A stretch of DNA of 64,000 nucleotides, taken from contig CP060233.1 of the NCBI GenBank assembly GCA_023898665.1, forward strand, positions 146,801-210,800, in the 5' to 3' direction. This document shows, in pieces, positions 1 to 64,000 of the stretch. The notes under the pieces were generated by a model. That model saw only the letters and a list, made by a program, of their open reading frames with translations. It did not search any database and was not told the origin of the DNA. A program made the translations under genes and the position numbers. Source of the stretch: Candidatus Nomurabacteria bacterium. Lineage in GTDB: Bacteria; Patescibacteriota; Saccharimonadia; Saccharimonadales; HK-STAS-PATE-42. Positions within the stretch are counted from its first letter, which is position 1. Every line of letters starts with the position of its first letter.

Positions 1-1147
1 TTTTGCCGTCCTCGTTAGTTTCTTGAATCTGCCCAAACCAAGCGTGGAAGAGTTCGGTTGATTCTAGCCAGCCCAGTTTTTTTGCTAGAGCGAAGACTTG
101 TTGAAAGTGAAATCTTTGTTGGATATCTACCGAGTAGATTATCTTCTTTGGAGTTTTTGGATAGTTTTTGAGTCTATGCTCGATTGTTGCAATGTCAGTA
201 GTGGCGTAGAGAGACGTTCCGTCGCTTTTCTCTATCAGTATTGGAGTTTTTATGTCGTATTCTTCGAGATTGACTATGACGGATCCGTCTGATTGCTTTG
301 TCGCGACACCATCTTTTATTAGTTCTTGGACGATTTGTTTTCCTCTTTTTAAGAAGAATGATTCGCCAAGGTTCTCATCTGGATGCACTCCAAGTTCTTC
401 TAGAACTCCGAACATGTGAGCGATTGTGACATCATTGAACTTAGCCTGGTACATCAGAGCCTCTGGATCCCCTGCTTCTAACTTTTTCAGCCAGCCTGCT
501 ACCTGCTCTTTTAGTTTAGTGTTTCCGGCTTCTTCCTCTTTTTTAAGTAGAGCTTTTGTTTCTGCATATACTCTACCAAGTTCATACGCTCCTCCTTCTT
601 TTAATTTTTCATCGCAACTCAATAACTTGAAGCCAACAACCCAAATACCAAATGGTGTACCGCTATCACCAATATGCGTATCTCCAACCGTTTGATATCC
701 ACTAAGCTTAAGTAGGTTTATTATTGCTTGGCCCTGTAGGGTCGGCCTTAGATGTCCAATGCTAAATGGTTTAGCCATGTTAAGCCCAACGTAATCTACT
801 ATGGCCAGCTCTCCAGAACCAGAATCGTTAGATCCGTAAAGTTGGTTTTCTTTGAGATCTAAACTTAAGTTTTCTGCAAGCAATCTTGGGTCGAGCCAAA
901 TGTTTAGGAAGCCTCCTGCCGGTTCTAGTTTTTTTATCTCGCTGATATTAACTTCTTGTGAAAGCTTTTGTGCAAGCTCGTTTGGATTTAAGCTTAGTTC
1001 TTTGGCGACGGAAAAAAGTGGGACGGCAATGTGAGCCCCAGTTTTTGGGTGAGCTGGGATGACCTCAAAATTATGTGGAGTTTTAAGTAGCTTCTGTAGA
1101 TTAACTTTCAGTTCTTCTGAGAATCTATCTAAAAAATATGTAGTCAT
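1..1147 (-). CDS. argS: arginyl-tRNA synthetase, N-terminal ~382 codons (C-terminus runs off the left edge)
   Basis: Absent from the ORF track because it has no stop codon inside the window. My translation from the ATG at 1145-1147 gives MTTYFLDRFSEELKV...IVDYVGLNMAKPFSIGHLRPTLQGQAI...IYSVDIQQRFHFQQVFALAKKLGW, which matches class-I ArgS signature blocks. Confidence 0.8.
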   Translation of the reverse strand, partial: MTTYFLDRFSEELKVNLQKLLKTPHNFEVIPAHPKTGAHIAVPLFSVAKELSLNPNELAQKLSQEVNISEIKKLEPAGGFLNIWLDPRLLAENLSLDLKENQLYGSNDSGSGELAIVDYVGLNMAKPFSIGHLRPTLQGQAIINLLKLSGYQTVGDTHIGDSGTPFGIWVVGFKLLSCDEKLKEGGAYELGRVYAETKALLKKEEEAGNTKLKEQVAGWLKKLEAGDPEALMYQAKFNDVTIAHMFGVLEELGVHPDENLGESFFLKRGKQIVQELIKDGVATKQSDGSVIVNLEEYDIKTPILIEKSDGTSLYATTDIATIEHRLKNYPKTPKKIIYSVDIQQRFHFQQVFALAKKLGWLESTELFHAWFGQIQETNEDGK

Positions 1148-1242
1148 TTGATATTAGTATAACAGAGACAGCGCTCTCATATATTGACGGGTAGTGGTAT
1201 GATTAAGCTTATAGTTAAATTTATTGAGGTTAGATTGACATT

Positions 1243-2325
1243 ATGGCTCCAGAAGAAATGACTAAATCTGAGGATAATAGTACTAAAAGTTCAAAAAAGA
1301 AGAAGCTTAAAATTATTGCCATAGTCGTTGGGGTAGTTTTAGTCTTGGGAGGTGTGACGGCTGCTTTAGTAGTTAGGAGTATTTATAACAAACCAGAGAA
1401 TGTTGTGGCTACGGCACTCGGTAACTACCTACTAGATGGTGAGGATAAGAACTTTGATACAAAAATCTCTCTTGATATGGAAGAGGCTTTGATGGGAGTT
1501 AAGAATGTTGACCTGGGTGCAAATGTACAGATGTCTGGTAAAACTACCCAAATTGACCTAACTATTAATGCCTCAATAATTACACTAAGAGGATCTATAC
1601 AGTCTAATGAAAATGGTAATCTTTATGTAAAGATTGAGGATATCCCTGCTCTCTTGTCTTCTTCTGCCTTGCAGGCTTCTGGTCTGCCTGCTGAAATGGC
1701 TACCCAGCTTTCATCTCTTGATAAAAAATGGATTGAGATAAAGCCTAAAGACATAGAGAAGTTGACTGGCAAGGAATCTGAAGAAAGCGCCCTTGATAAA
1801 TGTACGAATGCACTTTATGCGGCACTTGATAACGATGAGCTAGGTGGCTCTGTTGATAAACTTTATAAAAAGCACAGATTTATAATAGCTAAGAATGCTG
1901 TTGAAGAGAAAGTTGGCGATAAGGAGCTCCTAAAAGTTGAGGTAGGCTTAGATCAAAATAAGTTTAATGAGTTTGCTACAGAACTTTCTAAGTCTGATGT
2001 AGCTAAGAAAGCTATTGATGACTGCGGTTTATCATCAGATGGTAATGATAATAGCTCTGATGATGGATCAGAACTAAAGAACGGTAAACTAACTGTTTGG
2101 GTTGATCGAGGTAAGAAAGAGCTTGTTAAGCTTGAAGCGACTGGCGATAACTTTACAAAAGATGGTCAGAAGAATATGGGGATGAAGATGACTATGGACG
2201 CTAAAGAACCTGCGGTAAAGCTAGAGGCTCCAAGCGATACGGTGAATATTTTGACTTTACTTGAGGGCTTAGGGATTAACCCGGCTATGTTGCAAGGTCT
2301 AGGTGGTGGATCTACTGCTCAGTAA
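1243..2325 (+). CDS. hypothetical membrane-anchored protein (single N-terminal TM helix, large extracytoplasmic part)
   Basis: 360-aa ORF with the hydrophobic segment IIAIVVGVVLVLGGVTAALVV after a Lys-rich N-terminus. I recognise no family motif. Confidence 0.6.
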   Translation: MAPEEMTKSEDNSTKSSKKKKLKIIAIVVGVVLVLGGVTAALVVRSIYNKPENVVATALGNYLLDGEDKNFDTKISLDMEEALMGVKNVDLGANVQMSGKTTQIDLTINASIITLRGSIQSNENGNLYVKIEDIPALLSSSALQASGLPAEMATQLSSLDKKWIEIKPKDIEKLTGKESEESALDKCTNALYAALDNDELGGSVDKLYKKHRFIIAKNAVEEKVGDKELLKVEVGLDQNKFNEFATELSKSDVAKKAIDDCGLSSDGNDNSSDDGSELKNGKLTVWVDRGKKELVKLEATGDNFTKDGQKNMGMKMTMDAKEPAVKLEAPSDTVNILTLLEGLGINPAMLQGLGGGSTAQ

Positions 2326-2348
2326 TATTAAGATAAAAAGTGTTAATC

Positions 2349-2379
2349 AAAAAGAGCTCTAATATGAGCTCTTTTTTTA
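2349..2379 (+). terminator. intrinsic terminator after the 1243-2325 gene
   Basis: AAAGAGCTC-taatat-GAGCTCTTT hairpin followed by a T-run. Confidence 0.75.
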
Positions 2380-2540: not shown

Positions 2541-4013
2541 ATGACAAAATTTTATATAACGACAACAATCCCCTACGTAAATGGGGATCTTCACTTGGGC
2601 CATGCTCAAGAATTTGCTGAGGCTGATACCCTTGCTAGATATTACAGATCAAAAGGCGATGAAGTCTTATTTAGCGCCGGAACAGATGAAAATGGAGAGA
2701 AGAATTTTGAGGTTGCCCAAAAATCTGGGATTACTCCTCAACAATATGTCGATTCAATGCTTCCGAATGTTCTTGCTGTACATAAAGCTTACAATATTTC
2801 TGCCGATAGATTTATAAGGACTAGTGATGAGGCTCACCATGCGCGAGTTCAGATTGCTTGGACTAAATTAAAGCCTTATATTTTTAAGTCTAAATATATT
2901 GGTTACTACTGTGTGGGGTGTGAGGAGTTTAAGACAGAGACTGACTTTAAAGAGAACAATGGTGTTTGCCCGGATCATAACCGAAAGTACGAAATGAGAG
3001 AAGAAGAAAATTACTTCTTTAAATTGAGCGACTTTGGCGAAAGAATTACTGAGGCGATTAACTCAGAAGAAATGAGGGTAGTTCCTGATTCTAAAAAGAA
3101 TGAGATCTTAAGCTTAATTAAATCGGGGTTGGATGATTTGAGTGTCTCTAGGCCAAAGTCAAAGCTTGCTTGGGGTGTTGAGGTTCCTGATGACCCTGAG
3201 CATACTATTTATATCTGGTTTGAGGCACTTCTTAACTACATTACTCTAATTGGTTACCCAGAGCATGAAGATTTTAAAAAGTTTTGGCCAGCTGATTTGC
3301 AGGTTTTGGGTAAAGGAGTTTTAAGGCAACATGCGGCGATATGGCCGGCGATATTAATGGGCCTTGGTTTGCCACTTCCTAAAAATCTTTTTGTACACGG
3401 TTACGTTAGTGTGAACGGCAAAAAGATGAGTAAATCTTTAGGCAATAGTGTGGATCCTCTATATCTGGCAAAGTTATTTGGGACTGACGGGGCAAGGTAC
3501 TTCTTGCTCTCTTCTATACCTAGTTATAGTGACGGAGATTTTACCTGGCAAAAGATGTTAAATGTTTATAACAATGATCTTATTAATGGTCTAGGCAATG
3601 TCATCCAAAGGACGTCGATGATGATTGGCAAGTATTTGAATGGAGAGATTGGAGATAAAGTTCCGGGATCTAGACACGATCATACTGTGTATCACGAAGC
3701 TTTGAGCGATTACCGCTTTGATAAGGCATTAGAATGGGTTTTTGGGATAGTTGATGGGGTTAATAAATATTTAGAGCAGACTAAGCCATGGATGCTTGCT
3801 AAGGATGAATCTAATAAAGAGCATGTTAGAGAGATTCTATTAACCTGCGTTGCAGATTTACGAGAAGTATCTGCTTTATTGGCTCCATTTATGCCTCAAA
3901 CTGCAGAGATGATTAACTCTGTGTTTGGTGGCAGTGTCCTAAATCCGCCTCAAGGTCCAGTATTTGCAAGAGTTGAACTCCCTGGAGAGTTAACTGCTCA
4001 AGGTGCTGTTTAG
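2541..4013 (+). CDS. metG: methionyl-tRNA synthetase
   Basis: Contains TTTIPYVNGDLHLGHA (HIGH motif), KMSKSLGN (KMSKS motif) and a CxxC...CP knuckle. Length 490 aa. Confidence 0.95.
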   Translation: MTKFYITTTIPYVNGDLHLGHAQEFAEADTLARYYRSKGDEVLFSAGTDENGEKNFEVAQKSGITPQQYVDSMLPNVLAVHKAYNISADRFIRTSDEAHHARVQIAWTKLKPYIFKSKYIGYYCVGCEEFKTETDFKENNGVCPDHNRKYEMREEENYFFKLSDFGERITEAINSEEMRVVPDSKKNEILSLIKSGLDDLSVSRPKSKLAWGVEVPDDPEHTIYIWFEALLNYITLIGYPEHEDFKKFWPADLQVLGKGVLRQHAAIWPAILMGLGLPLPKNLFVHGYVSVNGKKMSKSLGNSVDPLYLAKLFGTDGARYFLLSSIPSYSDGDFTWQKMLNVYNNDLINGLGNVIQRTSMMIGKYLNGEIGDKVPGSRHDHTVYHEALSDYRFDKALEWVFGIVDGVNKYLEQTKPWMLAKDESNKEHVREILLTCVADLREVSALLAPFMPQTAEMINSVFGGSVLNPPQGPVFARVELPGELTAQGAV

Positions 4014-5014
4014 GCCTCTAGATTTCCTATTAGTCCCCTCATCTGCTCATCCATTAGGATTCTAACTAGTTGCGGGTCAGGTGGTCCGGCCATCTTCTCT
4101 GGCGGTAGTCCATCTAGCCTGTTTATATACCTAGTTCTCGTTCGTACTTTAGTGCCAGATATTTCAACTTTTTGTATAGAAACTTCATAGAACTCTCCTC
4201 CACTTGCTTTGTTTTTTATTGGGCAGTATTCTTGGAGACATGTTATACAGTCTTCTTCAGGTTCGGCATCTTCTGCCTCAAATAAAGCAGTATTATATAG
4301 CTCGAGCGTGGGTTGATGTTTGAACGGCTTTATCTCATCTGGATGTTTACCGTTATTTCTTTTCTTCCATGCCTTCTCTGCCTCATATCTTAAAACTAAG
4401 AATTTACTGAGAGTCCGAGCACATCGTGGTCTTGTCTCTTTTGACTCATTAAGAATATCTATCTCTTTGCCTTCGGCAGGTCTAGGGTCTGGCACCTCTT
4501 CTATTTTTAATGTAAGTTCTTCTTGTGGTATAACAGACTCTAGGGTTTCGGTGATTGGTTCTTCTGGTTGGGCAAAACCGATTTCGTCAAAGCCTTCACG
4601 TAGTATTTCATCCGCAACATGTATTAGGGTTACTCCATAATATCTAAGTCTTCTAAGTAGTCTTTCTTTCACGGCTGACATTTCTGGAAGTTGGAGCATG
4701 GTGATGTCGGCAACAGTTATGGCCTTTACTGTAGTTTTGGTTATTGAAACTGATACCTCTTCTAAACTTAATATATCTTCTCTAAATTTTAGAGGGCATC
4801 TTAGTAGCCCGTCAGGCTCAAGGCAGTTTCTGCAGTCCGATAATGGGTTTGTAAGTATAGCTGCATCACTGGCTTTTTGTAGCCTATCATTAATAGTATC
4901 CGGATCTTCAGTATCAAATGCAGTCTCAAAGGACTTTGCACAGGATGGATTAGTGGGCTCGACTAAATCTCCACTTTCTGGAGGTGGTGGCGATTGCCTC
5001 TGCTCTCCAATCAT
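4010..5014 (-). CDS. hypothetical protein with three CxxC...C(P) motifs
   Basis: 334-aa ORF containing DCRNCLEPDGLLRCP, DCITCLQEYCP and an acidic central region. No family recognised. Confidence 0.55.
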   Translation of the reverse strand: MIGEQRQSPPPPESGDLVEPTNPSCAKSFETAFDTEDPDTINDRLQKASDAAILTNPLSDCRNCLEPDGLLRCPLKFREDILSLEEVSVSITKTTVKAITVADITMLQLPEMSAVKERLLRRLRYYGVTLIHVADEILREGFDEIGFAQPEEPITETLESVIPQEELTLKIEEVPDPRPAEGKEIDILNESKETRPRCARTLSKFLVLRYEAEKAWKKRNNGKHPDEIKPFKHQPTLELYNTALFEAEDAEPEEDCITCLQEYCPIKNKASGGEFYEVSIQKVEISGTKVRTRTRYINRLDGLPPEKMAGPPDPQLVRILMDEQMRGLIGNLEA

Positions 5015-5053
5015 GGGGTGGATTGTACCTGTTGATGGGCTTATAAGTCAAGT

Positions 5054-5383
5054 TTAAGCGGCTATTTCTGGGTTGTCTATAACTACTTTTTCCTCGGGTA
5101 GTCTAGATGCTAACTTTTCTTTCTGTTGTTCAAGCTCCCCTGATGATACTGCTGTGTTATAGGCTTCAGTCATCGGCTCCATTTGACCTGGTTTTTTAAG
5201 GTTACAGCCAATACACCCCTCACAGTCGGCAGCTTTTGCTAACTCTTGGGCAGTTCTTGACTCACCCTTAGTAATTGATTCAAGCTTACTAGAGCCAATT
5301 ATAACCGGAGTTGATAATTTGCTAAACGCTAATAGCATTGCCTCCTGACATGAAATTGGTTTTTGTGACTTAACTTCTTCCAT
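5054..5383 (-). CDS. hypothetical small protein with a CxxCxxC motif
   Basis: 109-aa ORF containing DCEGCIGCNLKKPG. TGATACAAT lies 9 nt upstream of the ATG. Confidence 0.5.
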   Translation of the reverse strand: MEEVKSQKPISCQEAMLLAFSKLSTPVIIGSSKLESITKGESRTAQELAKAADCEGCIGCNLKKPGQMEPMTEAYNTAVSSGELEQQKEKLASRLPEEKVVIDNPEIAA

Positions 5384-5405
5384 ATGCCGAGTATTGTATC
5401 ATACT

Positions 5406-6221
5406 CTAGCTGTTTTTGTCAATGAGATGCAAGAGGTTCTCGTATAGATAGCTTATGGTTAGAGGTCCAACTCCGCCAATACTTGGAGTTATTTTTATGT
5501 CTAATTTGGAATTATATACTTCTGGATCTAGATCTCCTTTTAAGACTCCCCCATCTTCTGAAGTCCCGGCATCGATGATGACTTGGTTATCTTTTATCAT
5601 TTCGGATTTTATGAGCCCAGGTGAGCCGGTAGCTGTAATGATTATGTCTGAATTCTGTATAAATTCTTTTAGTTCTTCTGGTGAATTTGTCTCATCTAGA
5701 GTCTTAACTGATAGGTTTTGATCTTTTAGGGTTTTTAATAAAGGTAGGCCAACTAGTTTACCTTGGCCAATGATTAAGATATCTTTATCTTTTAGATCGA
5801 TATTGTAGCCGGCCAGAAGCCATAAGATTGCCCCGACTGTAGCGGGCTCCACTAAACTGTTTTTGTTTAAACCGTCAACGTCTTTTTCTGGTGGAATCAA
5901 GTTAGTCAGCTCGTCAGTTAAAGTTGGGTCTTCGAGTGGCAGTTGCAGGATAATCCCGTGCACTGATTTGTTTTTTGCGAGCTCTTTTATCTTCTCTTCT
6001 GCTACACTCTCAACAATCTGGTGTATATCAACTGTTATTCCTAACTCTTCTCCTCTAGCTTTTTTTAGCTCTAAATATTTTTGGCTAGGTTTATGATTTG
6101 GGTTTGTATTGATGATGGCAAGCTTTGGTTGGATGCTTTTGCTTTGGACTAAGCCTCTAATTTGTTTAGCCTGCCTTTCGGAGATGTATTCTACTAGTTC
6201 ACTGCCTTTTAAAAACTTCAT
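5406..6221 (-). CDS. folD: bifunctional methylenetetrahydrofolate dehydrogenase/cyclohydrolase
   Basis: Contains ILQLPL, DVDGL, GQGKLVGLPL and GGVGPLT blocks. Length 271 aa. Confidence 0.9.
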   Translation of the reverse strand: MKFLKGSELVEYISERQAKQIRGLVQSKSIQPKLAIINTNPNHKPSQKYLELKKARGEELGITVDIHQIVESVAEEKIKELAKNKSVHGIILQLPLEDPTLTDELTNLIPPEKDVDGLNKNSLVEPATVGAILWLLAGYNIDLKDKDILIIGQGKLVGLPLLKTLKDQNLSVKTLDETNSPEELKEFIQNSDIIITATGSPGLIKSEMIKDNQVIIDAGTSEDGGVLKGDLDPEVYNSKLDIKITPSIGGVGPLTISYLYENLLHLIDKNS

Positions 6222-6295
6222 GTATCTGTTATTTTAACAGAGAAAGCGTTACAATACGCCATGTAAGACAGAATTTAATAAGGAGATTCACCGAT

Positions 6296-6718
6296 ATGGC
6301 AAGAAGAATTAAGTCTAAGACTACTACTAAATCTGAAACTGCTGTGCAGAGAGCGGCTAGATTGACCAAGCTTAAGGAGGCCAGGGCGACTAAATTAACT
6401 GTTGGTTTTGTTGATTTTATTCGCGAGCAAGGTGTGGTTGGTTTGGCGGTAGGCCTTGCTATGGGTGCAGCGGCTGGAGCGGCAGTTAAAGCTATTGTAG
6501 ACGGCTTTGTAAGTCCGGTTATTGGATTTATCTTAGGTGGGTCAACTCTTGCTAATAAAGTTTGGAATACTGGCTTAGAGCGTGGTGGCAAAGAGCTTGT
6601 TATTGCATGGGGGTCTGCTGCAAATGCCGTAGTTACCCTATTGGCGACTGGTCTAGTTATATACTTCGTAGTTATGGGGCTAAAGTTGAATCGTCTCGAT
6701 AAGAAAAAAGAAAAATAA
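6296..6718 (+). CDS. mscL: large-conductance mechanosensitive channel
   Basis: FVDFIREQGVVGLAVGLAMGAAAGAAVKAIVDGFVSPVIG is a typical MscL TM1 region. An AAGGAG Shine-Dalgarno sequence lies upstream. Confidence 0.9.
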   Translation: MARRIKSKTTTKSETAVQRAARLTKLKEARATKLTVGFVDFIREQGVVGLAVGLAMGAAAGAAVKAIVDGFVSPVIGFILGGSTLANKVWNTGLERGGKELVIAWGSAANAVVTLLATGLVIYFVVMGLKLNRLDKKKEK

Positions 6719-6735
6719 TATATTACTTCAGTAGC

Positions 6736-7545
6736 CTATATTGGGATATCTTTTTTTCTAAAATAGAAAAGACCAATAAGGGTACTTATAATGAATGTAC
6801 CTAACAAAAAGAGGAGGCTTGAAGACTCAAGGCTGCCCGTAGTAACTACTCTTCCTGGGTTAAAATAATGGAAGACTGAGAAGTATTTAAGTTTATCTAA
6901 GTTAGTCTCTAAACTTGCTATTAAGTATAAGACGTATGATATAAGCAGGACCCCACTAATAGCCGCAGTAGATTTTCTGGCATCGTTTGCTATTGCGGAG
7001 GAGAGCATACCAAGGCCTAACACCGCCAATCCAAATAATAGCCCTAAGATTGCAATCATAACAGCATCTGAATTGCTAAGGTTGTACTTAAAGAGGGCCG
7101 CTAACGGGATAACTAAGACTTGGGAAATTATTACGAAAAATATTATTCCAATTGTTCCAGATACTAGTCTAGTTAGGTACAGTTCTTTTCTAGAGATGGG
7201 CATAGCTAAAAGATGGGTAATAGTTTTGTCTTGAACTCCTTGGGCGATGGCGTAACTGCTATAAGATACTGCCAGCATTATTAGCATTAATGGCCAAGTA
7301 AAGCCAAAGTGCTTTGAAGCCAGATAGCCTATTAAGGTCTGTGGTCCGGTGGTTATATTAAAGGCCGATATAACGCCTTTAGGTAAGGTACTTATCAACT
7401 TATCGTAATCAGCTGAAGATTTTTGGATAGCTGGAAAGGTGGCAATATAAAGAACAAGAAATCCAAAACCAATTAAGCAGAAAGTTGCCCAGCGCACGCG
7501 GTGATCTTTGATAGATTCTTTTAGAAGTTGTAGGTTTAGTCTCAT
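6736..7545 (-). CDS. ABC-2 type transporter permease
   Basis: 269-aa polytopic membrane ORF whose start overlaps the stop of the upstream ABC ATPase gene. Confidence 0.7.
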   Translation of the reverse strand: MRLNLQLLKESIKDHRVRWATFCLIGFGFLVLYIATFPAIQKSSADYDKLISTLPKGVISAFNITTGPQTLIGYLASKHFGFTWPLMLIMLAVSYSSYAIAQGVQDKTITHLLAMPISRKELYLTRLVSGTIGIIFFVIISQVLVIPLAALFKYNLSNSDAVMIAILGLLFGLAVLGLGMLSSAIANDARKSTAAISGVLLISYVLYLIASLETNLDKLKYFSVFHYFNPGRVVTTGSLESSSLLFLLGTFIISTLIGLFYFRKKDIPI

Positions 7546-8426
7546 GAGTATATCTCCTTAAAAATATCTTCTAAAGTTGGGCTAGAGATACTGAGCTGTT
7601 GGACGTTGTATTTAACAAGAATTTCTAAGAGTTTGTTTAGATCTCCTCTGAGTAAAAAACTAGCACTATTTATGGTAGTGGTTAAATCCTCTATATGTAA
7701 ACTGTTTAATTCTTTGGGCACTGACTTTTTGAAGGTTACTTTAATTGAGTGAGAGCCCACTTTTTTAAGTTTTGAAAGGTCGGTGTCGTCGATAATTTTT
7801 CCATCTTTTATGATTGCGACTTTACTGCATAGCTCTTCGACTTCGTATAAATCATGAGAAGAAAGTAGAATCGTCCCTCCCCGGGCTTGATAGTCACGCA
7901 GAAGTTGATGAAGAGTTGATCTAAAGAGTGGGTCTAGTCCTCTTGTGGGCTCATCTAGAATAAGTAGCATTGGATTGTGGATTAGGGCAAGTATTATTGC
8001 CAGTTTTTGATGATTGCCAGTTGAAAGTGCGCCAACTTTTCTGTCTCCATCAATTGAAAGTAATTTCTTTAGTTCTGTAGACCTTTTGGAATCAACTTTA
8101 AATATATGTTCTGCAAATTTGATGTGCCGATCGACGGTCCAGTTTGGGTATAGATTTGGTTCTGCTGGCACATAGCCGATTAGATTTTTGAGTTCTGTGC
8201 TGGAGGCTTCTTTATTCGCGTCTTTACCAAAAATGGTTACACTCCCCTTGTTTGGACGAATTGTGTCCGTTATACAGCGGATAGTTGTTGACTTGCCAGC
8301 ACCGTTTGGGCCTAAGAAACCGAAGATCTCACCCTTACTAATTTTTAAAGAGACATCCTCTAATGCTTTTTGCTTGCCAAAAAACTTAGTGACGTTATTA
8401 ATATCTAGTACAACTGGGCTGCTCAT
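7542..8426 (-). CDS. ABC transporter ATP-binding protein
   Basis: Walker A GPNGAGKST, ABC signature LSTGNHQKL, Walker B LLILDEP. Confidence 0.9.
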   Translation of the reverse strand: MSSPVVLDINNVTKFFGKQKALEDVSLKISKGEIFGFLGPNGAGKSTTIRCITDTIRPNKGSVTIFGKDANKEASSTELKNLIGYVPAEPNLYPNWTVDRHIKFAEHIFKVDSKRSTELKKLLSIDGDRKVGALSTGNHQKLAIILALIHNPMLLILDEPTRGLDPLFRSTLHQLLRDYQARGGTILLSSHDLYEVEELCSKVAIIKDGKIIDDTDLSKLKKVGSHSIKVTFKKSVPKELNSLHIEDLTTTINSASFLLRGDLNKLLEILVKYNVQQLSISSPTLEDIFKEIYS

Positions 8427-8461
8427 CTAAGATAAGATTAGCATAAAGAGTATACATGAGG

Positions 8462-8818
8462 CTATCTGAGCTGACTTAATCTTGTCTGAAGGATTTCTTT
8501 TAGGAGTTGTTCTGGAAATGGCTCGTTAAGTTTATACTTTAGGGTGCCTTTGCCTGATTCGTAGGGCTTTAATATTTCTTTTAAATTTTCTATTGGACCT
8601 GGAGTTGGGAAGATGCTTAAGTGATCTTTAAAAGCTCCAAAGTAGATCAGTGGCTTACCCTTATATTTAAATGCCGGCATGCCATAAGATATTGATTCTT
8701 CTGCTTCTGGCACTTCTTTTCTAACGATCTCGCGCAGTCTTTGGAGCTCATTTCTTTCTTCATTATCTAAATACTTTAGATATTCATCAACTGATGCGGC
8801 TCTTTTATCTTTATTCAT
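8462..8818 (-). CDS. DUF1801/YdhG-like domain protein
   Basis: The SYGMPAFKYKGKPLIYFGAFKDHLSIFP pattern is typical of YdhG-like proteins. Confidence 0.65.
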   Translation of the reverse strand: MNKDKRAASVDEYLKYLDNEERNELQRLREIVRKEVPEAEESISYGMPAFKYKGKPLIYFGAFKDHLSIFPTPGPIENLKEILKPYESGKGTLKYKLNEPFPEQLLKEILQTRLSQLR

Positions 8819-8830
8819 AGTGCAATCTTA

Positions 8831-9265
8831 TCAATCTAGTTTTGCAAAAGCGAATTCAAGTGACTTTTGTAGAACAGTTGCAATTAGTACTACTGCTAGG
8901 ATGCCAAAAAAGCCATGGATATTAAGATTGTTGCCAAAGATTAAATCAATCAGTCCAACGAAAACAAACTTAGAGCTAAACATAACAAACCAAGTGATAA
9001 AACCGTAAAAAAGTTTTACCTTAATATCTTCTGACTTCTTTAAATCTTTTATTAATCTCTTTTTAATTTTAAGCACTAAAAAAGTTAAGATACTTAAAAC
9101 AAGTGACCCTAAAAAGATGGTTGAAAAGCTTTTGGCCACGACGATATTTGTGTAGTCATTAAAGAATCCTAATACTGAAGCGTAAACTAAAGCCCCCAGG
9201 CTAATGTCCTTAAAGGTTAGTTGTTTAGTAGTAAAGCGAGGTGTTATTTCTTGTTGTTTTGGCAT
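8831..9265 (-). CDS. hypothetical integral membrane protein
   Basis: 144-aa ORF with about four hydrophobic helices. Confidence 0.5.
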   Translation of the reverse strand: MPKQQEITPRFTTKQLTFKDISLGALVYASVLGFFNDYTNIVVAKSFSTIFLGSLVLSILTFLVLKIKKRLIKDLKKSEDIKVKLFYGFITWFVMFSSKFVFVGLIDLIFGNNLNIHGFFGILAVVLIATVLQKSLEFAFAKLD

Positions 9266-9272
9266 ATTAATG

Positions 9273-9560
9273 TTATCTAAAAAAACTGATTACAATTAAT
9301 ATCATAGCTACTCCACCAAGGGTTTTTCTAAAATTGCTTGAGCCTCGTGTGAGCTCAAGGTACGCCCATGTAAATAGGAGAGCTGTGGCAAGATCTTGAA
9401 TATTATTCTTAAGTTGAATATCTTTTATAAATAATGAAAAGAGTTCGACTAGTAGCCAACCGGTTAAGGGGATGTTTGGGAGTTGAGCAATCGTAATCTT
9501 GCTCTCATCATTTTGGCAGAAACTAACTATTTGAGATTTTATGTTGCTTTTGTTCATCAT
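9273..9560 (-). CDS. hypothetical small membrane protein
   Basis: 95-aa ORF with hydrophobic segments. TGTTATTAT lies directly upstream of an ATGATG start. Confidence 0.45.
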   Translation of the reverse strand: MMNKSNIKSQIVSFCQNDESKITIAQLPNIPLTGWLLVELFSLFIKDIQLKNNIQDLATALLFTWAYLELTRGSSNFRKTLGGVAMILIVISFFR

Positions 9561-9571
9561 TTAATAATAAC

Positions 9572-9589: not shown

Positions 9590-9608
9590 TTACGCCGTTT
9601 ACGTTAGG

Positions 9609-9618: not shown

Positions 9619-9636
9619 TTGTGGAGCTAGTTGCAA

Positions 9637-55520: not shown

Positions 55521-56543
55521 ATGAATAGTTTTAAAAGTTATATTGAAGGGTCTGAGCACATTTTAGTGATCCAGGCAGAGAATCCGGATGGTGACTCTGT
55601 GGCTTCCTCTTTAGCTTTAGAAAGTTTAATCTTAGATAATTATCCTAATAAAAAGGTGACAATGTTCTGTAATATGACAGTTCCGGCGCACCTGAGATAT
55701 CTAAAAGGTTATGATAGAGTATCGCAAGACTTCCCAAGAGATTTTGACCTAGCAATTGTCGTTGATTGTGCCGAAGAAGTTTTACTTTCAAAAACTTTGC
55801 AACAGCCAGAATCAGGAAAGCTTAAGAAGTTACCTGTTTTAATCCTCGATCATCATAACGATGTAATTAATCTACCTTTTGAAACAGTTAATTTTATTGA
55901 TGAAACTGCAGTATCTACCGGGTCTGTTGTGTTTAATTTGGCTAAAGAAAATAAATTAGAAGTTAGTGAAGATACGGCAACTTTTATTACGGCTAGTATT
56001 TTAAGTGATACGATGGGCCTAACTTTGGATTTTGTAAAGGCGGATGATTTTAGGGTAATTGCTGAGCTAATTGATTTAGGCGCGAACGTATCTAAAATTG
56101 ATCAGGCTAGAAGAGAGTTAAATAAGCGTCCTCAGTTCATTACTCAATATAAAGGTGAACTGTTGCAAAGAGTGGAGTATTTACTAGATGGGAGACTAGC
56201 GTATGTGCATATCCCATGGGAGGAGATTGAGAAATACTCTGGCATTTATAATCCGCCAATTTTAGTATTTGAAGATATGAGGTTAACTGAGGGTGTACAA
56301 GTAGTGATGGCGGTTAAAACTTATAAAAATGGTAAGATGACGGCTAAGATTAGGACTAATCCTGGGTATGAGGTTGCAGGAGCGGTTGCTGAGAAATTTA
56401 ACTGTGGTGGGCATCCAGGCTCTGCTGGCTGTAAAGTTGAGCCAGGGATGTATACTTATGATGAATTTAAGGCTGAACTTATTAAGTATACGAGGGAAGA
56501 GCTGGATAAGCTTAATGAAAGTGATAATTTGAACAAAAGCTGA
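55521..56543 (+). CDS. nrnA: DHH/DHHA1 phosphoesterase (NrnA-like nanoRNase/pAp phosphatase), motifs intact
   Basis: NPDGDSVASSLAL, VVDC, LDHHN, ILSDTMGL and GGHPGSAG. TGGTATAAT lies 9 nt upstream of the ATG. Confidence 0.8.
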   Translation: MNSFKSYIEGSEHILVIQAENPDGDSVASSLALESLILDNYPNKKVTMFCNMTVPAHLRYLKGYDRVSQDFPRDFDLAIVVDCAEEVLLSKTLQQPESGKLKKLPVLILDHHNDVINLPFETVNFIDETAVSTGSVVFNLAKENKLEVSEDTATFITASILSDTMGLTLDFVKADDFRVIAELIDLGANVSKIDQARRELNKRPQFITQYKGELLQRVEYLLDGRLAYVHIPWEEIEKYSGIYNPPILVFEDMRLTEGVQVVMAVKTYKNGKMTAKIRTNPGYEVAGAVAEKFNCGGHPGSAGCKVEPGMYTYDEFKAELIKYTREELDKLNESDNLNKS

Positions 56544-56571: not shown

Positions 56572-58017
56572 ATGAACAAAATTAATAAAGTTGAACCAAA
56601 GATAGTGCTCTACAATACTCTTACCAGAAAGAAGGAGGAGCTCAAGACTTTGGAGCCCGGAAAAGTGAAGATGTTTGTCTGTGGACCTACTGTTTACGAC
56701 TATTCACATATTGGTCACGCAAAAACTTATATTCAGATGGATGTTCTGGCTAGAATGCTGAGAGCTTCTGGTTTAGAGGTATTTTACCTTCAGAACATTA
56801 CAAATATTGATGACAAGATTATTGTCCGTGCAAATGAGGCCGGCAGAGACTGGAAGGATCTTGCGGATGAGTTCTTGAAGTGTAATTTAGAGGATATGAA
56901 GACTCTTGGGGTTGATTCTGTCGATAAATATGCTGAGGCAACTGACTATATTGATGCGATAATTAAACAGGTCGAGACTCTAATAAGAAAAGACTTTGCT
57001 TACGTAATTGAAGGTGATGGAATTTATTTTGAGATTGCTAAATTTAAAGATTACGGTAAGCTTTCTGGTAGAAAAGAAATAAAAGAAAATGATGCACAAA
57101 CGAGAATAGATAGTAGTGAAAATAAGCGTGGTTGGAATGATTTTTGTTTATGGAAGTTTTCAAAGCCTGGTGAACCCGTTTGGGAGGCTCCATTTGGAAA
57201 GGGTAGGCCAGGCTGGCACATTGAGGATACTGCAATTACAGAAACTGAGTTTGGCCCACAGTATGATATTCATGGTGGTGCGCTAGACTTAATTTTTCCT
57301 CACCACGAGGCAGAAATTACTCAGATGGAGGCGGCCTCTGGAAAAGTTCCTTTTGTGGGCACCTGGGTTCATACTGGTTTTTTGAATGCTGAAGGGGCGA
57401 AGATGTCTAAGAGCCTGGGAAACTTTTATACAATCCGAGATGTTTTAGCTCGTGGTTACGATCCAAATGTAATTCGGTTATTCATGCTTCAATCTCACTA
57501 TCGGTCTCCAATAAATTTTAGCTGGGAGAATTTAGACGCGGCTAAGAATAGGTTGAGGAACTGGCAATCAATCGTAGATGAAATACTTCTACAAGAGTAT
57601 TCAAGAGGTAGTCACGATCTACCGAAGCATATTGATTCAAGTCTGGCTAATAGCAAAGATATTCTCCTAAGTTATATGAGCGATGATCTTGATACGCCCA
57701 TGGCACTATCAGCTATAGACGGAGACGAAATTGAAGATGAAGATAATTTCGGCACTTTAAGTCTATTTAAAAAATATGCTTATTCTGAGGAACTAAAAAG
57801 CTACATGAAGGATCTTGTCAATAACATAAAGGATATCTTAGGCATAGATCTTTTAAAGCCGGATATTTCTGAAGAGCAGAAGGAGCTGCTAAACTTAAGG
57901 CAGAAAGCTCGGGATGAGAGGGATTTTGAAGAGAGTGATAGACTACGAGAACAACTTAAGCTTAGTGGTCTAGATGTTCGGGATACTGAAAATGGGCAGA
58001 TTTGGAGTAGAGTGTAG
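56572..58017 (+). CDS. cysS: cysteinyl-tRNA synthetase
   Basis: CGPTVYDYSHIGHA and KMSKSLGN. The ORF track starts at a TTG at 56560; the ATG at 56572 is more likely. Confidence 0.93.
   Translation: MNKINKVEPKIVLYNTLTRKKEELKTLEPGKVKMFVCGPTVYDYSHIGHAKTYIQMDVLARMLRASGLEVFYLQNITNIDDKIIVRANEAGRDWKDLADEFLKCNLEDMKTLGVDSVDKYAEATDYIDAIIKQVETLIRKDFAYVIEGDGIYFEIAKFKDYGKLSGRKEIKENDAQTRIDSSENKRGWNDFCLWKFSKPGEPVWEAPFGKGRPGWHIEDTAITETEFGPQYDIHGGALDLIFPHHEAEITQMEAASGKVPFVGTWVHTGFLNAEGAKMSKSLGNFYTIRDVLARGYDPNVIRLFMLQSHYRSPINFSWENLDAAKNRLRNWQSIVDEILLQEYSRGSHDLPKHIDSSLANSKDILLSYMSDDLDTPMALSAIDGDEIEDEDNFGTLSLFKKYAYSEELKSYMKDLVNNIKDILGIDLLKPDISEEQKELLNLRQKARDERDFEESDRLREQLKLSGLDVRDTENGQIWSRV
57991..58017 (+). 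repeat. 27-bp direct repeat, copy 1 (last 8 codons plus stop of cysS)
   Basis: AATGGGCAGATTTGGAGTAGAGTGTAG, identical to 58478-58504. Confidence 0.95.
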
Positions 58018-61285: not shown

Positions 61286-62174
61286 ATCCTTCTTCTATTC
61301 TTTTTTGTAGCTCTTGAAAGCTTTCTAGAAAGTCATATTTATCATTGGTTTCTTCGTTTGCTAATGACCAAAGGCTAAAGCAGGCTGCGGTGTATCGAAC
61401 TGCTAATGGAATGGAGCTTTTCTCTTCTCGAGTTAACTTTTCTCTTTTCTCAAAGCCGGATATGATAAGCCTGCTCACTTCTGGGTAGGTTAGACCAGAT
61501 TCTGGTTGTCTATAGTAGATAACAATACCTAGATCAAGGATTCTTTGTTTGTATTCAACTGTTTCCAAGTCTAAGATAGCAATTATTTTTTTATCTTTTA
61601 TCAAAATATTGCCTTCATTGAGGTCTCCGTGAATAATAGATTGAGGTAAATTGAGTTTAGAGATCTCAGTGTATAGTTTGTCTATGTGAACCCTAATCTC
61701 TTTAGCAGTTTTCTTATCCTTATCTCTAAATTTGAGATTATCTTGATAGCCCGCAGAGAGATAGTTTTCTGGAACTTCTTTGGTTGGGATAGTTGAGTTA
61801 GCCAGTTGAAACCTAGCAATAAGCTCTCCTAGGTCTTCGAGAAGAGAGTTGGGGAATGTTTTTGGGTTTGGGTCGGCTTCTATATAATTAGAAAAAGTTA
61901 TTTTATTAGTGTCGACTTTTAGCAAAATTGGCTTATTATCGTCCTTTAATAGGAGAGGAGAGCCAATTCTAGCCTTGTTAAGCTTAGACTGCACTAGAGC
62001 TTCGAATGCTATATTCTCAGGTTTCTGTTCTTTAAGTATTCTTGCAACGATTTTCTCATTTTTGGAATTCTGGAGTAGGTAGTTTAGGTTAGCGATACCT
62101 GAATCGAATTGTTTTATTAACTTGAAATCTGATTTAAGCTTAGTGTTGATGGCATCTAATATCTTTTGGTCCAT
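61278..62174 (-). CDS. phosphotransferase-family kinase (APH / choline-kinase / homoserine-kinase II fold)
   Basis: IIHGDLNEGNILI (Brenner motif) and ILDLET. The ORF-track start at 62288 overlaps ychF by 110 nt. The ATG at 62174 (MDQKILD) lies 4 nt after the ychF stop. Confidence 0.7.
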   Translation of the reverse strand: MDQKILDAINTKLKSDFKLIKQFDSGIANLNYLLQNSKNEKIVARILKEQKPENIAFEALVQSKLNKARIGSPLLLKDDNKPILLKVDTNKITFSNYIEADPNPKTFPNSLLEDLGELIARFQLANSTIPTKEVPENYLSAGYQDNLKFRDKDKKTAKEIRVHIDKLYTEISKLNLPQSIIHGDLNEGNILIKDKKIIAILDLETVEYKQRILDLGIVIYYRQPESGLTYPEVSRLIISGFEKREKLTREEKSSIPLAVRYTAACFSLWSLANEETNDKYDFLESFQELQKRIEEGFK

Positions 62175-62178
62175 AGGC

Positions 62179-63252
62179 TTAAACGTTAAAGCGGAATTCG
62201 ACGACGTCGTCAGGTTGCATGATGTAGTTCCGTCCTTCGGTGTGGATTTTTCCGGCGGCTTTGACAGCGCTTTCGGAGCCAGCTTCAATGAGGTCTTGGT
62301 AATTAATGACTTGAGCAGCTATAAAACCTCGTTCGAAGTCTCCATGGATGACGCCTGCAGCCTGCGGGGCGGTTGCGCCAGTTTTTATGGTCCAGGCTCT
62401 AACTTCTTCTGGTCCGGCTGTTAAATAACTCTGTAGGCCTAAAAGTTTATATGCGCTAGAAATTACTTTTTGAAGTCCACTTTCTGTTTGGCCGTATTCG
62501 GCAAGTAATTCTGAAGAGCTTTCTTCATCAAGCTCACTTAATTCTTCTTCTAGTTTGGCGTTTACAAAAAGAGCTGGGTTATTCGGCACAAGAGCTTGGA
62601 GTTTTTGTTTGTTTTCATCATTTTGTAAGTCTTCTTCTGAGACGTTAAAGATATACATGGTTGGTTTGGTCGAGAAGAGATTAAGATCTTTTAGGTCAGC
62701 TTTTTGTTCTTCATCTAAATCAGGTATTTCTCCTGATTGAAGACTCTCAAGAACTAAATGGTATAAATCATCCAAAGGCTTTAATTTAGGGTTTGATTTA
62801 ACTTCTTTTTTAAAGTTTTGAATGCGTTTTTCTAGGGTGGCTAAATCGGCTAAGATTAACTCGGTTTTAATAATCTCAATGTCTTGAGCGGGGTGGATTC
62901 TGTCTGCAACGTGCAGAATATCATCGTTTTTAAAGTCTCTTACAACTTGGGCAATGGCATCACATTCACGAATGTGGCTTAAGAATTTATTACCTAAGCC
63001 TTCTCCTTTTGAAGCTCCTTCAACGAGTCCGGCGATATCGACAAAATTGATTGTAGCTGGAATTATCTTTTTAGAATTGTAAAGCTCAGCAAGTGCTTTT
63101 AAGCGATCATCAGGCACTTCGACAATACCAGTATTCGGCTCAATGGTTGCAAAAGGGTAATTAGCGGCGAGAGCCCCAGCTTTTGTAAGAGCGTTAAAAA
63201 GGGTAGATTTACCAACATTTGGGAGACCAACTATTCCAATTTTGAGTGACAT
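62179..63252 (-). CDS. ychF: redox-regulated ATPase YchF
   Basis: MSLKIGIVGLPNVGKSTLFNALT G1 motif and a C-terminal TGS-like region. Length 357 aa. Confidence 0.95.
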   Translation of the reverse strand: MSLKIGIVGLPNVGKSTLFNALTKAGALAANYPFATIEPNTGIVEVPDDRLKALAELYNSKKIIPATINFVDIAGLVEGASKGEGLGNKFLSHIRECDAIAQVVRDFKNDDILHVADRIHPAQDIEIIKTELILADLATLEKRIQNFKKEVKSNPKLKPLDDLYHLVLESLQSGEIPDLDEEQKADLKDLNLFSTKPTMYIFNVSEEDLQNDENKQKLQALVPNNPALFVNAKLEEELSELDEESSSELLAEYGQTESGLQKVISSAYKLLGLQSYLTAGPEEVRAWTIKTGATAPQAAGVIHGDFERGFIAAQVINYQDLIEAGSESAVKAAGKIHTEGRNYIMQPDDVVEFRFNV

Positions 63253-63299
63253 ATATGCATATTATAACAGGTTCAACGGGGAGAATATCTAGGTGAATA

Positions 63300-63584
63300 T
63301 TATGAGCGGTAGTATTTTCTTAAGATCTGTTCTTTGTCGGGTCGAGAGGTTTTTATTTCTCGAGATAGTACTATGATGGTGGTTAAGATTGAGAATGAAA
63401 ACATTGATGCACCGAGGATACGAAGTTTAGTAGATTTTGGACTGGTATTGATATTGTGCTTAATCTCACTAGCGGTGGGGCTTGCGTATGTGTGATTGTT
63501 TATAGATAGTGAGCTTGCTCCGGCTAAAAATAGAGCCGAGAGGGTCAATGTCGCGCACCACCAAAGGGCGTGTAATATTTTCAT
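63300..63584 (-). CDS. hypothetical small secreted/membrane protein
   Basis: 94-aa ORF with an N-terminal signal-like helix and a second hydrophobic segment. Confidence 0.4.
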   Translation of the reverse strand: MKILHALWWCATLTLSALFLAGASSLSINNHTYASPTASEIKHNINTSPKSTKLRILGASMFSFSILTTIIVLSREIKTSRPDKEQILRKYYRS

Positions 63585-63702
63585 TTTTTAGGTAATTTGT
63601 TTTAATTTTTCCGTATTTATTTGTTGGAGAATACGGAGATTGGTTCAATGTGTAGTAGAATTATAACCAAACTTTGATCGTTTTAACAAACCTGTTCAAA
63701 AA

Positions 63703-64000
63703 ATGAATAAATCTAAAGCTAAGAAATTTAAAAAGAAATTACTCTCAATAGAATCTTATTATTTAGCAGGGATAGCGCTTGCAGTATCCCTTTTATTTAA
63801 GGGGGGCTTATTTTTATCCCCTGCCGTGGCAATTTCGGCATATTTTTCTTGGGAGATTTTTAGAGATGATATTAAAGAATATAAAGTCAGCCACTTTAGT
63901 TTAACTGGATTATTAGTTGGTGGCATAGGGATGGCAGTAGCCGGTGCTCATTTTGATGTGTCAATTTTAAGAGGAGTTATCTTCTTCTTTATTGGTTGGG
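63703..64000 (+). CDS. hypothetical membrane protein (5' part; runs off the right edge)
   Basis: Open frame from the ATG at 63703 to the window end: MNKSKAKKFKKKLLSIESYYLAGIALAVSLLF... with several hydrophobic helices. Confidence 0.4.
   Translation, partial: MNKSKAKKFKKKLLSIESYYLAGIALAVSLLFKGGLFLSPAVAISAYFSWEIFRDDIKEYKVSHFSLTGLLVGGIGMAVAGAHFDVSILRGVIFFFIGW

Follow-up and report, generated by a model that had tools for sequence, protein, structure and literature searches.

HIP1 (GCGATCGC), the highly iterated palindrome of cyanobacteria, is an octamer whose function is still debated (Robinson 1995; Elhai 2015; Xu 2018). Elhai modelled it as the site of an orphan methyltransferase serving repair, replication or regulation (PMC4390886), Xu et al. 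proposed a role in chromosome architecture (PMC5861425), and it has also been proposed in the literature as an uptake tag; a link to natural transformation is now suspected, and methylated HIP1 raises the transformation efficiency of Synechococcus up to >100-fold. Here we describe another palindrome of this kind, the octamer TAAGCTTA, in 64 kb of ordinary chromosomal DNA from a metagenome-assembled genome (MAG) of the Saccharibacteria (GCA_023898665.1, contig CP060233.1, positions 146,801 to 210,800). This whole stretch, ~10% of a ~692-kb genome, is called the window below.

Like HIP1, TAAGCTTA is a hyper-abundant octameric palindrome, with an observed/expected ratio (O/E) of 11–70 and 550–2000 copies per Mb (HIP1, O/E 15–300 and 300–2700 per Mb). 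It is free-standing in coding and non-coding DNA, has a palindromic extension to 10 nt such as HIP1 shows in some genomes, is scarce or missing in single lineages surrounded by rich ones, is conserved above background at its sites and holds classic type II methyltransferase sites in its core. Motifs of the HIP class are recognised as the top 8-mer of a genome with an O/E of at least ~15; TAAGCTTA is the top octamer here, with an O/E of 11 for the window and of 27–70 for the related lineages L082, L086 and L088. It differs from HIP1 in its AT-rich sequence, in its host (Patescibacteria/Saccharibacteria with a ~0.7-Mb genome, not cyanobacteria) and in being confined to a narrow clade where HIP1 is phylum-wide. 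Deviation from HIP1 is least tolerated at the central positions 4 and 5, whereas the central positions are the most variable ones here, and no cognate methyltransferase was found in the window and ~7 kb of flanking sequence.

Other short repeated signals offer more distant parallels. Repetitive extragenic palindromes (REP), bacterial interspersed mosaic elements (BIME) and miniature inverted-repeat transposable elements (MITE) are likewise repeated palindromic DNA in many copies, but they are imperfect palindromes of 20–150 bp in intergenic DNA, whereas the present element has 8–10 bp, unrelated flanks and 77% of its copies inside genes. The DNA uptake sequences (DUS) of Neisseria and the uptake signal sequences (USS) of the Pasteurellaceae mark DNA for transformation, and those of Haemophilus and Neisseria occur at ~0.8–0.9 per kb (published site counts over genome size). 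In Campylobacter jejuni, CtsM methylates RAATTY and DNA is discriminated during transformation by this methylation. To our knowledge, in the 30 years since HIP1-like iterated palindromes came to light they have been found almost exclusively in cyanobacteria, and sequence-specific uptake tags in just two proteobacterial families. The Saccharibacteria are tiny, uncultured epibiotic bacteria which have become genetically tractable only recently, through natural transformation. Their natural competence via ComEC has been established experimentally (PMC10633639). A full-text literature search found no report of TAAGCTTA as a genomic motif, the matches being cloning primers only, and no prior report of iterated palindromes or uptake sequences in Patescibacteria; the motif has apparently not been reported in this phylum before.

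The iterated unit and its frequency in the window

Exact counting over the window (39.8% GC) gave 77 copies of AAGCTT, 35 of TAAGCTTA and 11 of the 10-mer TTAAGCTTAA, with zero-order expectations of 20.8, 1.9 and 0.17. An earlier note on this DNA had reported ~75, ~35 and 11 copies from hand counts and expectations of ~20, 2 and 0.2, all of which agree with the computed values, and had placed the 10-mers correctly to within a few bases. Dinucleotide-preserving shuffles of the window yielded 3.0±1.6 octamers (maximum 7) and 44.3±7.0 hexamers (maximum 61). Markov models of order 0, 1, 3 and 5 predicted 1.9, 3.2, 3.4 and 12 octamers, all below the 35 copies observed; the corresponding figure for AAGCTT was 45–61 across orders 1–4. 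No other octamer of the window is over-represented to nearly the same degree as TAAGCTTA (z ~24), whose density is 0.55 per kb and whose O/E is 11.

The over-representation that had been claimed for AAGCTT holds for the octamer (35 vs ~3) and not for the hexamer by itself, whose modest excess comes entirely from the octamer. T…A flanks are carried by 35 of the 77 hexamers and every other flank pair is present in at most 8 copies; because the 42 copies outside the octamer are at expectation (45–51, orders 1–3), the hexamer excess is carried by the octamer. AAGCTT was therefore rejected as the unit, which is the octamer TAAGCTTA with a weak palindromic extension to YTAAGCTTAR. The sequences surrounding the 35 sites are unrelated to one another, so that we are dealing with a free-standing short palindrome and not with the core of a longer repeat, and a longer repeat or mobile element as carrier of the motif was rejected. 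A restriction target was rejected as well, since such a site would be avoided or at most neutral whereas the octamer is enriched; the picture (11–70-fold enrichment, AAGCTT outside the octamer at expectation) is the opposite of restriction-site avoidance, as had been pointed out from the letters alone. Sequence beyond the window in the same organism, on Logan contigs that were reached through the window-end genes and extend it by 2.2 kb and 4.6 kb (~7 kb), is denser still in the motif (4 sites/2.2 kb and 8 sites/4.6 kb).

Placement in genes and intergenic DNA

Sixty-five genes were defined from open reading frames (ORFs), covering ~90% of the window and leaving 6.1 kb of intergenic DNA with 32% GC. 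Of the 35 sites, 27 are coding and 8 intergenic. When synonymous codons were shuffled within genes, which preserves every protein and the codon usage of each gene, the coding count was 3.5±1.8 and 0/1000 shuffles reached 27; permutation of whole codons yielded 2.2±1.5. The 8 intergenic sites compare with 0.5–1.2 expected, and the intergenic density of 1.3 per kb is ~3x that of coding DNA (0.47 per kb). Codon shuffles thus do not reproduce the counts in coding DNA, and the contention that amino-acid and codon composition are insufficient as an explanation is borne out.

The coding sites lie in genes of both strands and in two frames, 19 as xxT-AAG-CTT-Axx (Lys-Leu, or K-L) and 8 as xTA-AGC-TTA (Leu/Ile/Val-Ser-Leu, or L-S-L); the TAA|GCT|TA frame, which would be a stop, is used by none of the 27. 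Both frames, both strands and the intergenic examples had been described correctly before. Since two coding frames and intergenic DNA are affected, the pressure acts on DNA. The codon pair AAG-CTT was observed 39 times with 12.4 expected from independent codon usage. AGC, which the earlier note took for an otherwise unfavoured codon, is not one: it makes up 261 of 1387 Ser codons, and just 8 of these fall in the motif.

Distribution among Saccharibacteria

We compared motif density in related lineages at two distances. In 80 other Saccharibacteria species (GTDB, ~20-kb loci, 1.55 Mb in total) TAAGCTTA was found 30 times with 30.6 expected (O/E 0.98), and none of these loci was enriched for it or held a comparable palindrome. 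Closer relatives were recovered via homologues of PNPase, whose identities to the window run from 100 to 77% and then drop to 60%, together with their contigs (10–32 kb compared per relative). Among them the motif is patchy (O/E 1.9–70): five lineages have O/E 11–70 with up to 2.0 per kb and three are almost without it (Table 1). Lineage relations were approximated by protein identities, which are discordant between genes. The trait thus belongs to one narrow (genus- or family-level) clade of Saccharibacteria and ranges from near-saturation to near-absence inside it. Identical sites recur in independent NCBI, JGI, ENA and Logan assemblies, which rules out an assembly or adapter artefact. A metagenome scan with PNPase gave relatives of at most 58% identity among the matches listed, and these served as negative controls.

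Table 1. Frequency of TAAGCTTA in close relatives of the source genome.
Lineage	PNPase identity to window	Sites observed	Sites expected	Sites per kb	O/E
L082	95%	27	1.0	1.2	27
L084	89%	2	0.3	0.20	6.4
L085	88%	1	0.5	0.08	1.9
L086	86%	34	0.5	2.0	70
L087	84%	9	0.8	0.41	11.5
L088+L170	83%	47	1.4	1.5	33
L089	79%	10	0.8	0.45	13
L171	77–78%	4	0.85	0.18	4.7

The two lineages of intermediate enrichment, L087 and L089 (O/E ~12), have sites that are mostly not common to the rich lineages, and in L089 the L-S-L frame predominates, with 30% of its permissive positions occupied vs 4% for the K-L frame. This pattern may reflect a different history or a slightly different specificity.

One family of viral sequences in IMG/VR (L253/L273/L287, 41–43% GC) holds 5 TAAGCTTA in ~14 kb, with ~0.35 expected. 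The viral collection had been scanned for two motifs 30–60 bp apart, a criterion whose matches were mostly chance pairs, and the count of 5 is not significant given this selection of loci. The family has no proteins in common with the Saccharibacteria loci; its members could be phages of motif-bearing hosts.

Conservation and saturation of sites

Codon alignments were made for 22 orthologous genes in eight lineages. Among the window, L082, L086 and L088 site retention was 41–75% at ~70% nucleotide identity, compared with 9–15% of all 8-mers in the same genes and 18–29% when only 8-mers with identical amino acids are counted. Relative to L084, L085, L087 and L089, 0–22% of sites were retained, equal to background. 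To judge from these alignments, sites are kept at orthologous positions in trait-bearing lineages and decay to background in sisters without the trait, so that the pressure depends on something that can be gained and lost.

The share of permissive positions that carry the motif is high in the rich lineages. Synonymous X-K-L-Z positions are filled to 70–71% in L086 and L088, to 48–50% in the window's syntenic genes and L082 and to 28% over the whole window, with 0–9% in L084, L085, L087 and L089 and ~3% expected from codon usage (a rough estimate). Positions for [LIV]-S-L are filled to 25–60% in the window's syntenic genes, L082, L086 and L088, and the fill of permissive positions in L084, L085 and L087 is 0–17%. 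Many sites lie on conserved Lys-Leu or Leu-Ser-Leu residues for which motif-poor relatives use the synonymous AAA-CTT, AAA-CTA or AGT-TTA. K-L and [LIV]-S-L per 1000 aa are not raised in rich relative to poor lineages; peptide frequencies being unchanged, the enrichment arises from codon choice.

Some sites do cost amino acids. In ParA of L088, TAGAGAAGAG (LEKS) has become TTAAGCTTAG (LKLS) through several substitutions and amino-acid changes, PNPase of L086 shows LMLT to LSLT and LIAA to LSLA, and at the window site 30588..30595 other lineages encode LIL, LAL, LLL or LGL. Several gains needed 3–5 substitutions. We read the alignments as evidence of a strong genome-wide pressure at the DNA level which fills nearly every free position, occasionally overrides the protein and has been lost in some sisters. 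TAAGCTTA is almost certainly a genuine iterated palindrome maintained by lineage-specific DNA-level pressure.

Motif variants

Symmetrised logos from six lineages gave the consensus YTAAGCTTAR, in which the core is lengthened at either end by a degenerate base. At position -1, T accounts for 55–75% and C for 16–36% of sites (Y for 80–93%), and G for 0–5% in lineages with at least 27 sites. In rich lineages the O/E falls from 23 for exact matches to 2.4 with one mismatch and 1.0 with two, while the gradient is flat at ~1 in the 1.55 Mb of distant Saccharibacteria. At positions 1–3, transitions are more enriched than transversions among the one-off variants.

The most enriched one-off variants are central (O/E 8.6, 3.65 and 1.9). 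The commonest, TAAACTTA/TAAGTTTA, has 126 sites with O/E 8.6 in rich lineages (1.2 in distant Saccharibacteria) and is the product of a C-to-T change at the central cytosine; it is followed by TAATCTTA (O/E 3.65) and TAGGCTTA (O/E 3.3). In the alignments, too, the alternative most often seen at the orthologous position deviates in its central G/C. The leading variants are GC-to-AT changes at the motif's only G/C pair, a pattern that ordinary mutational decay in an AT-rich genome would give just as well as deamination of a methylated central cytosine.

A second palindrome, CGACGTCG, has three copies in the window (17081, 49960 and 62202; two of them as ACGACGTCGT) with ~0.1–0.2 expected. All three are inside conserved genes (FtsH, UvrB and YchF) and there is no enrichment in relatives, so it was rejected as a second iterated motif; the copies are probably due to chance or driven by the peptides.

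The motif-free 15 kb

For 35 uniformly placed sites, a gap as long as the largest octamer-free stretch of the window (3.1–18.7 kb) has P = 0.002, so the gap is itself non-random. In the motif-rich L088 lineage (L170) the orthologous stretch from FtsH to RluD measures 11.9 kb and carries 11 sites, including one in ftsH. Genes of the empty stretch are closest to the motif-poor L171: FtsH is 86% identical to L171 and 76–79% to rich lineages (79% to L082), HolB 60% and 48%, and ORF 14831 72% and 56%, respectively. PNPase shows the opposite, with 95% to L082 and 77% to L171, and ORF 29883-30878 is 78% identical to L084 but 54% to L082. Such discordant closest relatives of adjacent core genes indicate a mosaic genome with homologous exchange between lineages of the clade. 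The left boundary of the stretch is spanned by an independent Logan contig, which makes a chimeric assembly unlikely.

On these identities, a separate ancestry of the empty 15 kb is probable, as opposed to an inherent resistance to the motif, and the block would fit motifs that accumulate after DNA enters a motif-driving lineage. The intervals that the earlier note had described as free of the motif (9.6–11.1 kb, 37.8–39.2 kb, 58.0–58.8 kb and ftsH) are indeed all free of it. Its conclusion that absence is not diagnostic of foreign DNA does not hold up: absence is informative, the L170 orthologue having 11 sites and the window copy being nearest to motif-poor L171.

Possible functions of the motif

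We favour, with a probability of roughly 0.4, the explanation that the motif is a self-DNA tag which is read during natural transformation and accumulates by molecular drive. A dimeric, sequence-specific DNA-recognition factor of the transformation pathway would read it, either at cell-surface uptake or in the handling or protection of incoming DNA, and recognition might depend on methylation by a cognate methyltransferase whose site lies inside the palindrome. Motif-bearing fragments would then be preferentially taken up and recombined, motif-creating mutations would spread and motif-destroying mutations would be replaced, as in the molecular drive described for Neisseria DUS and Pasteurellaceae USS and proposed for HIP1, and a lineage that lost the reader would lose the motif. 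Somewhat more tentatively, YTAAGCTTAR may be the first sequence-specific self-recognition signal for natural transformation in Patescibacteria, a palindromic tag for uptake or processing which is possibly read through methylation.

Several observations count in favour of an uptake tag. The density of ~0.5–2 per kb is comparable to DUS/USS, as had been proposed for the window (0.55 per kb, with up to 2.0 per kb in relatives). Like DUS/USS, the motif occurs at about one per kb in genes and intergenic DNA, is lineage-specific (absent from the 80 other Saccharibacteria), and uses frames compatible with common peptides and preferred codons. Natural competence has been demonstrated by experiment for the phylum. 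One-mismatch forms are mildly enriched (O/E 2.4), as in the published drive model, and orphan, inserted, homologue-less or recently acquired genes are without the motif, as published for USS. The mosaic genome and a motif-free block that resembles a motif-poor lineage were counted on the same side.

Other observations weigh against it. The window and its flanks (~10% of the genome) yielded neither a competence gene nor a pilin, such as the receptor ComP, nor a methyltransferase or another candidate reader. DUS/USS are asymmetric 9–12-mers and not palindromes, and often form inverted pairs in terminators; the present motif is a perfect palindrome with single intergenic copies and no association with terminators. 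Uptake sequences roughly double the frequency of the peptides they encode, and here these are not raised. Site conservation and saturation would be equally expected from an intracellular function at high density. The feature thus agrees with most operational criteria for a HIP and with the density and lineage criteria of uptake sequences, and it departs from the central-position rule of HIP1 and from the asymmetry and peptide doubling of DUS/USS. C. jejuni RAATTY offers a partial parallel, in that a short palindrome marks self DNA via an orphan methyltransferase and not an uptake receptor, but RAATTY is a degenerate six-base site which is frequent anyway in an AT-rich genome and not a hyper-enriched 8–10-mer, and no methyltransferase was found here in the window and flanks.

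The main alternative, possible though rather doubtful, is that the motif is the target of an orphan DNA methyltransferase with an intracellular role (mismatch-repair strand marking, timing of replication or segregation, or gene regulation). Methylated YTAAGCTTAR sites would lie every ~0.5–2 kb, their density would be selected directly, and loss of the methyltransferase would lead to loss of the motif. Both AAGCTT and AGCT, specificities well known from type II enzymes, lie in the core, the abundance of HIP1 co-varies with methyltransferases for CGATCG and GATC (PMC4390886), the sites are conserved and near saturation, and patchy gain and loss fits an accessory gene. The commonest variant, TAAGTTTA/TAAACTTA, is the expected product of 5-methylcytosine deamination, but an excess of C-to-T and C-to-A is also given by the ordinary GC-to-AT bias of an AT-rich reduced genome, and the central positions are the most variable here and the least variable in HIP1. 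A six-base specificity of the HindIII type, which had been suggested, cannot by itself explain that only the T…A-flanked hexamer is enriched; the broader idea of an orphan methyltransferase remains a candidate, although a degenerate 10-bp palindrome would be unusual for a type II enzyme. Neither a methyltransferase gene nor its catalytic motifs were seen in the 64 kb and flanks, which is weak evidence as these make up ~10% of the genome. A methyltransferase and a transformation tag are not mutually exclusive.

We consider it improbable that an abundant nucleoid-associated or chromosome-organising protein binds the motif, as a dimer on two YTAAG half-sites, and that selection on architecture maintains it. 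Dimeric DNA-binding proteins typically recognise palindromes of this kind (10 bp, with degenerate outer positions), the motif is present in both coding and intergenic DNA, and its sites are conserved between genomes above background, an argument also made for HIP1 (PMC5861425). The number of sites, an estimated 400–1400 in ~0.7 Mb, is however far from that of known architectural sites, and near-saturation of free positions suggests an indiscriminate pressure and not selection on placement. The known sites in question (parS, Noc, SlmA and matS) number tens per genome. Sister lineages manage without the motif, and no candidate protein was identified. All three roles which the earlier note had offered, namely a competence signal, the target of an orphan methyltransferase and a recombination or architectural site, remain live candidates.

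Biased repair is a poor candidate. A Vsr-like or other mismatch-specific endonuclease would correct near-motifs toward TAAGCTTA, and copies would accumulate as a neutral by-product; this would account for a genome-wide, indiscriminate pressure that saturates free positions, for a trait that depends on something losable and for the central G/C difference in the commonest orthologous alternative. Repair toward the central C should, however, deplete TAAGTTTA, which is 8.6-fold enriched; the motif and its T-variant together (152+126 sites) are ~13-fold over expectation, so the outer positions are driven too; gains of 3–5 substitutions are hard to reconcile with such repair; and there is no Vsr-like gene in the window. 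Finally, although Lys-Leu is a common dipeptide, AT-rich genomes favour words containing TAA or TTA and a Markov model of order 6 predicts 28 copies (being essentially fitted to the motif itself), an artefact of codon usage, dipeptides or oligonucleotide bias is refuted by the Markov models, by the dinucleotide and codon shuffles (3.5 and 2.2 vs 27; intergenic 8 vs ~1), by the use of two frames, and by the O/E of ~1 in distant and sister lineages whose proteins are the same and whose GC is similar.

Tagging of donor DNA could improve the genetics of Saccharibacteria should the motif promote uptake or recombination in the way that methylated HIP1 acts in Synechococcus, and if the motif is a self-recognition signal it would define which of these epibionts exchange genes. 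It provides an independent example of an iterated palindrome with a different sequence, in a different phylum and in a minimal genome. Close relatives that range from saturated to empty amount to a natural comparative experiment, in which a gene co-varying with the motif across lineages would be the reader and could settle the purpose of such motifs. In MAGs, the motif might also be of use as an inexpensive marker of lineage and to flag recently imported DNA.

Host, gene content and site list

The window carries genes for MetRS, FolD, an ABC transporter, tRNA-Lys, RluD, HolB, HrcA, FtsH, TilS, RNase J, TsaD, PNPase, an LCP-family protein, signal peptidase, TruB, ParA/ParB, sigma-70, DnaG, ValRS, UvrB, FtsK, CysRS, S6, SSB, S18, EF-P and YchF. 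The source MAG is labelled Candidatus Nomurabacteria at NCBI. Its PNPase is identical to USN97842.1, its UvrB matches solely Candidatus Saccharibacteria genomes at no more than 72% identity, and UvrB, PNPase and FtsH place it among the Saccharibacteria/Saccharimonadales; on these protein matches the label is probably wrong.

The earlier note had suggested a search for M.HindIII-like methyltransferases or endonucleases and for competence genes, and none turned up in the window and its flanks. Among ~60 window ORFs scanned with Pfam and NCBIfam none proved to be a DNA methyltransferase, a restriction enzyme, Vsr, a com gene or a pilin, a regular-expression search of the window found no methyltransferase catalytic motifs or prepilin N-termini, and the ~7 kb of flanks held no methyltransferase, endonuclease, Vsr, pilin or com gene. 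The right flank (L173 1622-4158) encodes a XerC/D-type tyrosine recombinase and two ORFs without assigned function at a motif density of 1.7 per kb, and also a 171-aa ORF with a weak match to prepilin peptidase (Peptidase_A24). The positions of the 35 sites are given in Table 2.

Table 2. Sites of TAAGCTTA in the window and the long stretch free of it (window coordinates; strand "." = palindrome; 10-mer, site within TTAAGCTTAA).
Feature	Coordinates	Strand	Location and frame	Common to
TAAGCTTA	703..710	.	intergenic, 8 nt downstream of ORF 426-695	
TAAGCTTA	989..996	.	intergenic	
TAAGCTTA	1204..1211	.	intergenic, 32 nt upstream of ORF 1243-2325	
TAAGCTTA (10-mer)	3109..3116	.	MetRS gene, xTA-AGC-TTA	
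octamer-free 15.6-kb stretch	3117..18683	.	FolD, ABC transporter, tRNA-Lys, RluD, HolB, HrcA, FtsH; AAGCTT at background	
TAAGCTTA	18684..18691	.	TilS-like gene (- strand), T-AAG-CTT-A	L082, L088
TAAGCTTA (10-mer)	19788..19795	.	intergenic	
TAAGCTTA	20015..20022	.	unknown ORF 19849-20649, xTA-AGC-TTA	window-specific
TAAGCTTA	20456..20463	.	unknown ORF 19849-20649, xTA-AGC-TTA	window-specific
TAAGCTTA (10-mer)	23172..23179	.	RNase J gene, K-L	L082, L086, L088
TAAGCTTA (10-mer)	24499..24506	.	intergenic, RNase J / TsaD	
TAAGCTTA (10-mer)	24746..24753	.	TsaD gene, K-L	L082, L088
TAAGCTTA	25442..25449	.	TsaD gene, K-L	L086, L088
TAAGCTTA	26655..26662	.	PNPase gene, L-S-L	L084, L086, L087, L088, L089
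TAAGCTTA (10-mer)	27089..27096	.	PNPase gene, K-L	L082, L086, L088, L089
TAAGCTTA (10-mer)	27279..27286	.	PNPase gene, L-S-L	L082, L086, L088, L089
TAAGCTTA	27953..27960	.	PNPase gene, K-L	L086, L088
TAAGCTTA (10-mer)	30588..30595	.	unknown ORF 29883-30878, L-S-L	L088
TAAGCTTA (10-mer)	31458..31465	.	LCP-family gene, K-L	L082, L086
TAAGCTTA (10-mer)	31641..31648	.	LCP-family gene, K-L	L082, L084, L086, L088
TAAGCTTA	33043..33050	.	signal peptidase I gene, K-L	window-specific
TAAGCTTA	36934..36941	.	ParB gene, K-L	L088
TAAGCTTA	37519..37526	.	ParB gene, K-L	L088
TAAGCTTA	37579..37586	.	ParB gene, K-L	window-specific
TAAGCTTA	39701..39708	.	sigma-70 gene, K-L	
TAAGCTTA	40875..40882	.	intergenic, sigma-70 / DnaG	
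TAAGCTTA	45747..45754	.	ValRS gene, K-L	
TAAGCTTA	47038..47045	.	intergenic	
TAAGCTTA	49013..49020	.	UvrB gene, L-S-L	
TAAGCTTA	49792..49799	.	UvrB gene, K-L	
TAAGCTTA (10-mer)	51092..51099	.	FtsK gene, L-S-L	
TAAGCTTA	52917..52924	.	intergenic, 23 nt past FtsK stop	
TAAGCTTA	56507..56514	.	DHH-family gene, K-L	window-specific relative to L086
TAAGCTTA	57957..57964	.	CysRS gene, K-L	L086
TAAGCTTA	61979..61986	.	APH-like kinase gene 61278-62288 (-), K-L	
TAAGCTTA	62135..62142	.	APH-like kinase gene 61278-62288 (-), K-L	

The orphan ORF 37849-39153 (434 aa) adjoins parB, matches nothing in Pfam and lacks an orthologue at the syntenic loci. Among the 2-kb bins of the window, the one that contains it is the richest in GC (38-40 kb, 46.6% vs ~40% overall). 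The ORF contains neither AAGCTT nor TAAGCTTA and was probably acquired recently.

The PNPase ORF (26538-28760, - strand) gives 633 aa from the first ATG, compared with 696–706 aa in homologues and database entries. The in-frame extension upstream is conserved in relatives but offers none of the codons ATG, GTG and TTG, so that translation probably starts at a non-canonical codon. The interval between PNPase and TsaD holds different small genes in each lineage; in the motif-poor L085 an ORF with a GIY-YIG nuclease domain (11469-11891) lies directly downstream of PNPase and is absent there in the other lineages. The longest RluD ORF begins with TTG at 11103, and its 5' end overlaps with the gene for tRNA-Lys(CTT) (11104-11180, - strand). 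As Logan calls RluD at 299 aa, the real start is downstream of this TTG.

The + strand of the window has T > A, and parAB (36.0-37.7 kb) is not accompanied by a switch in skew. Cumulative GC skew rises monotonically over 1-64000, which puts the window on one replichore.

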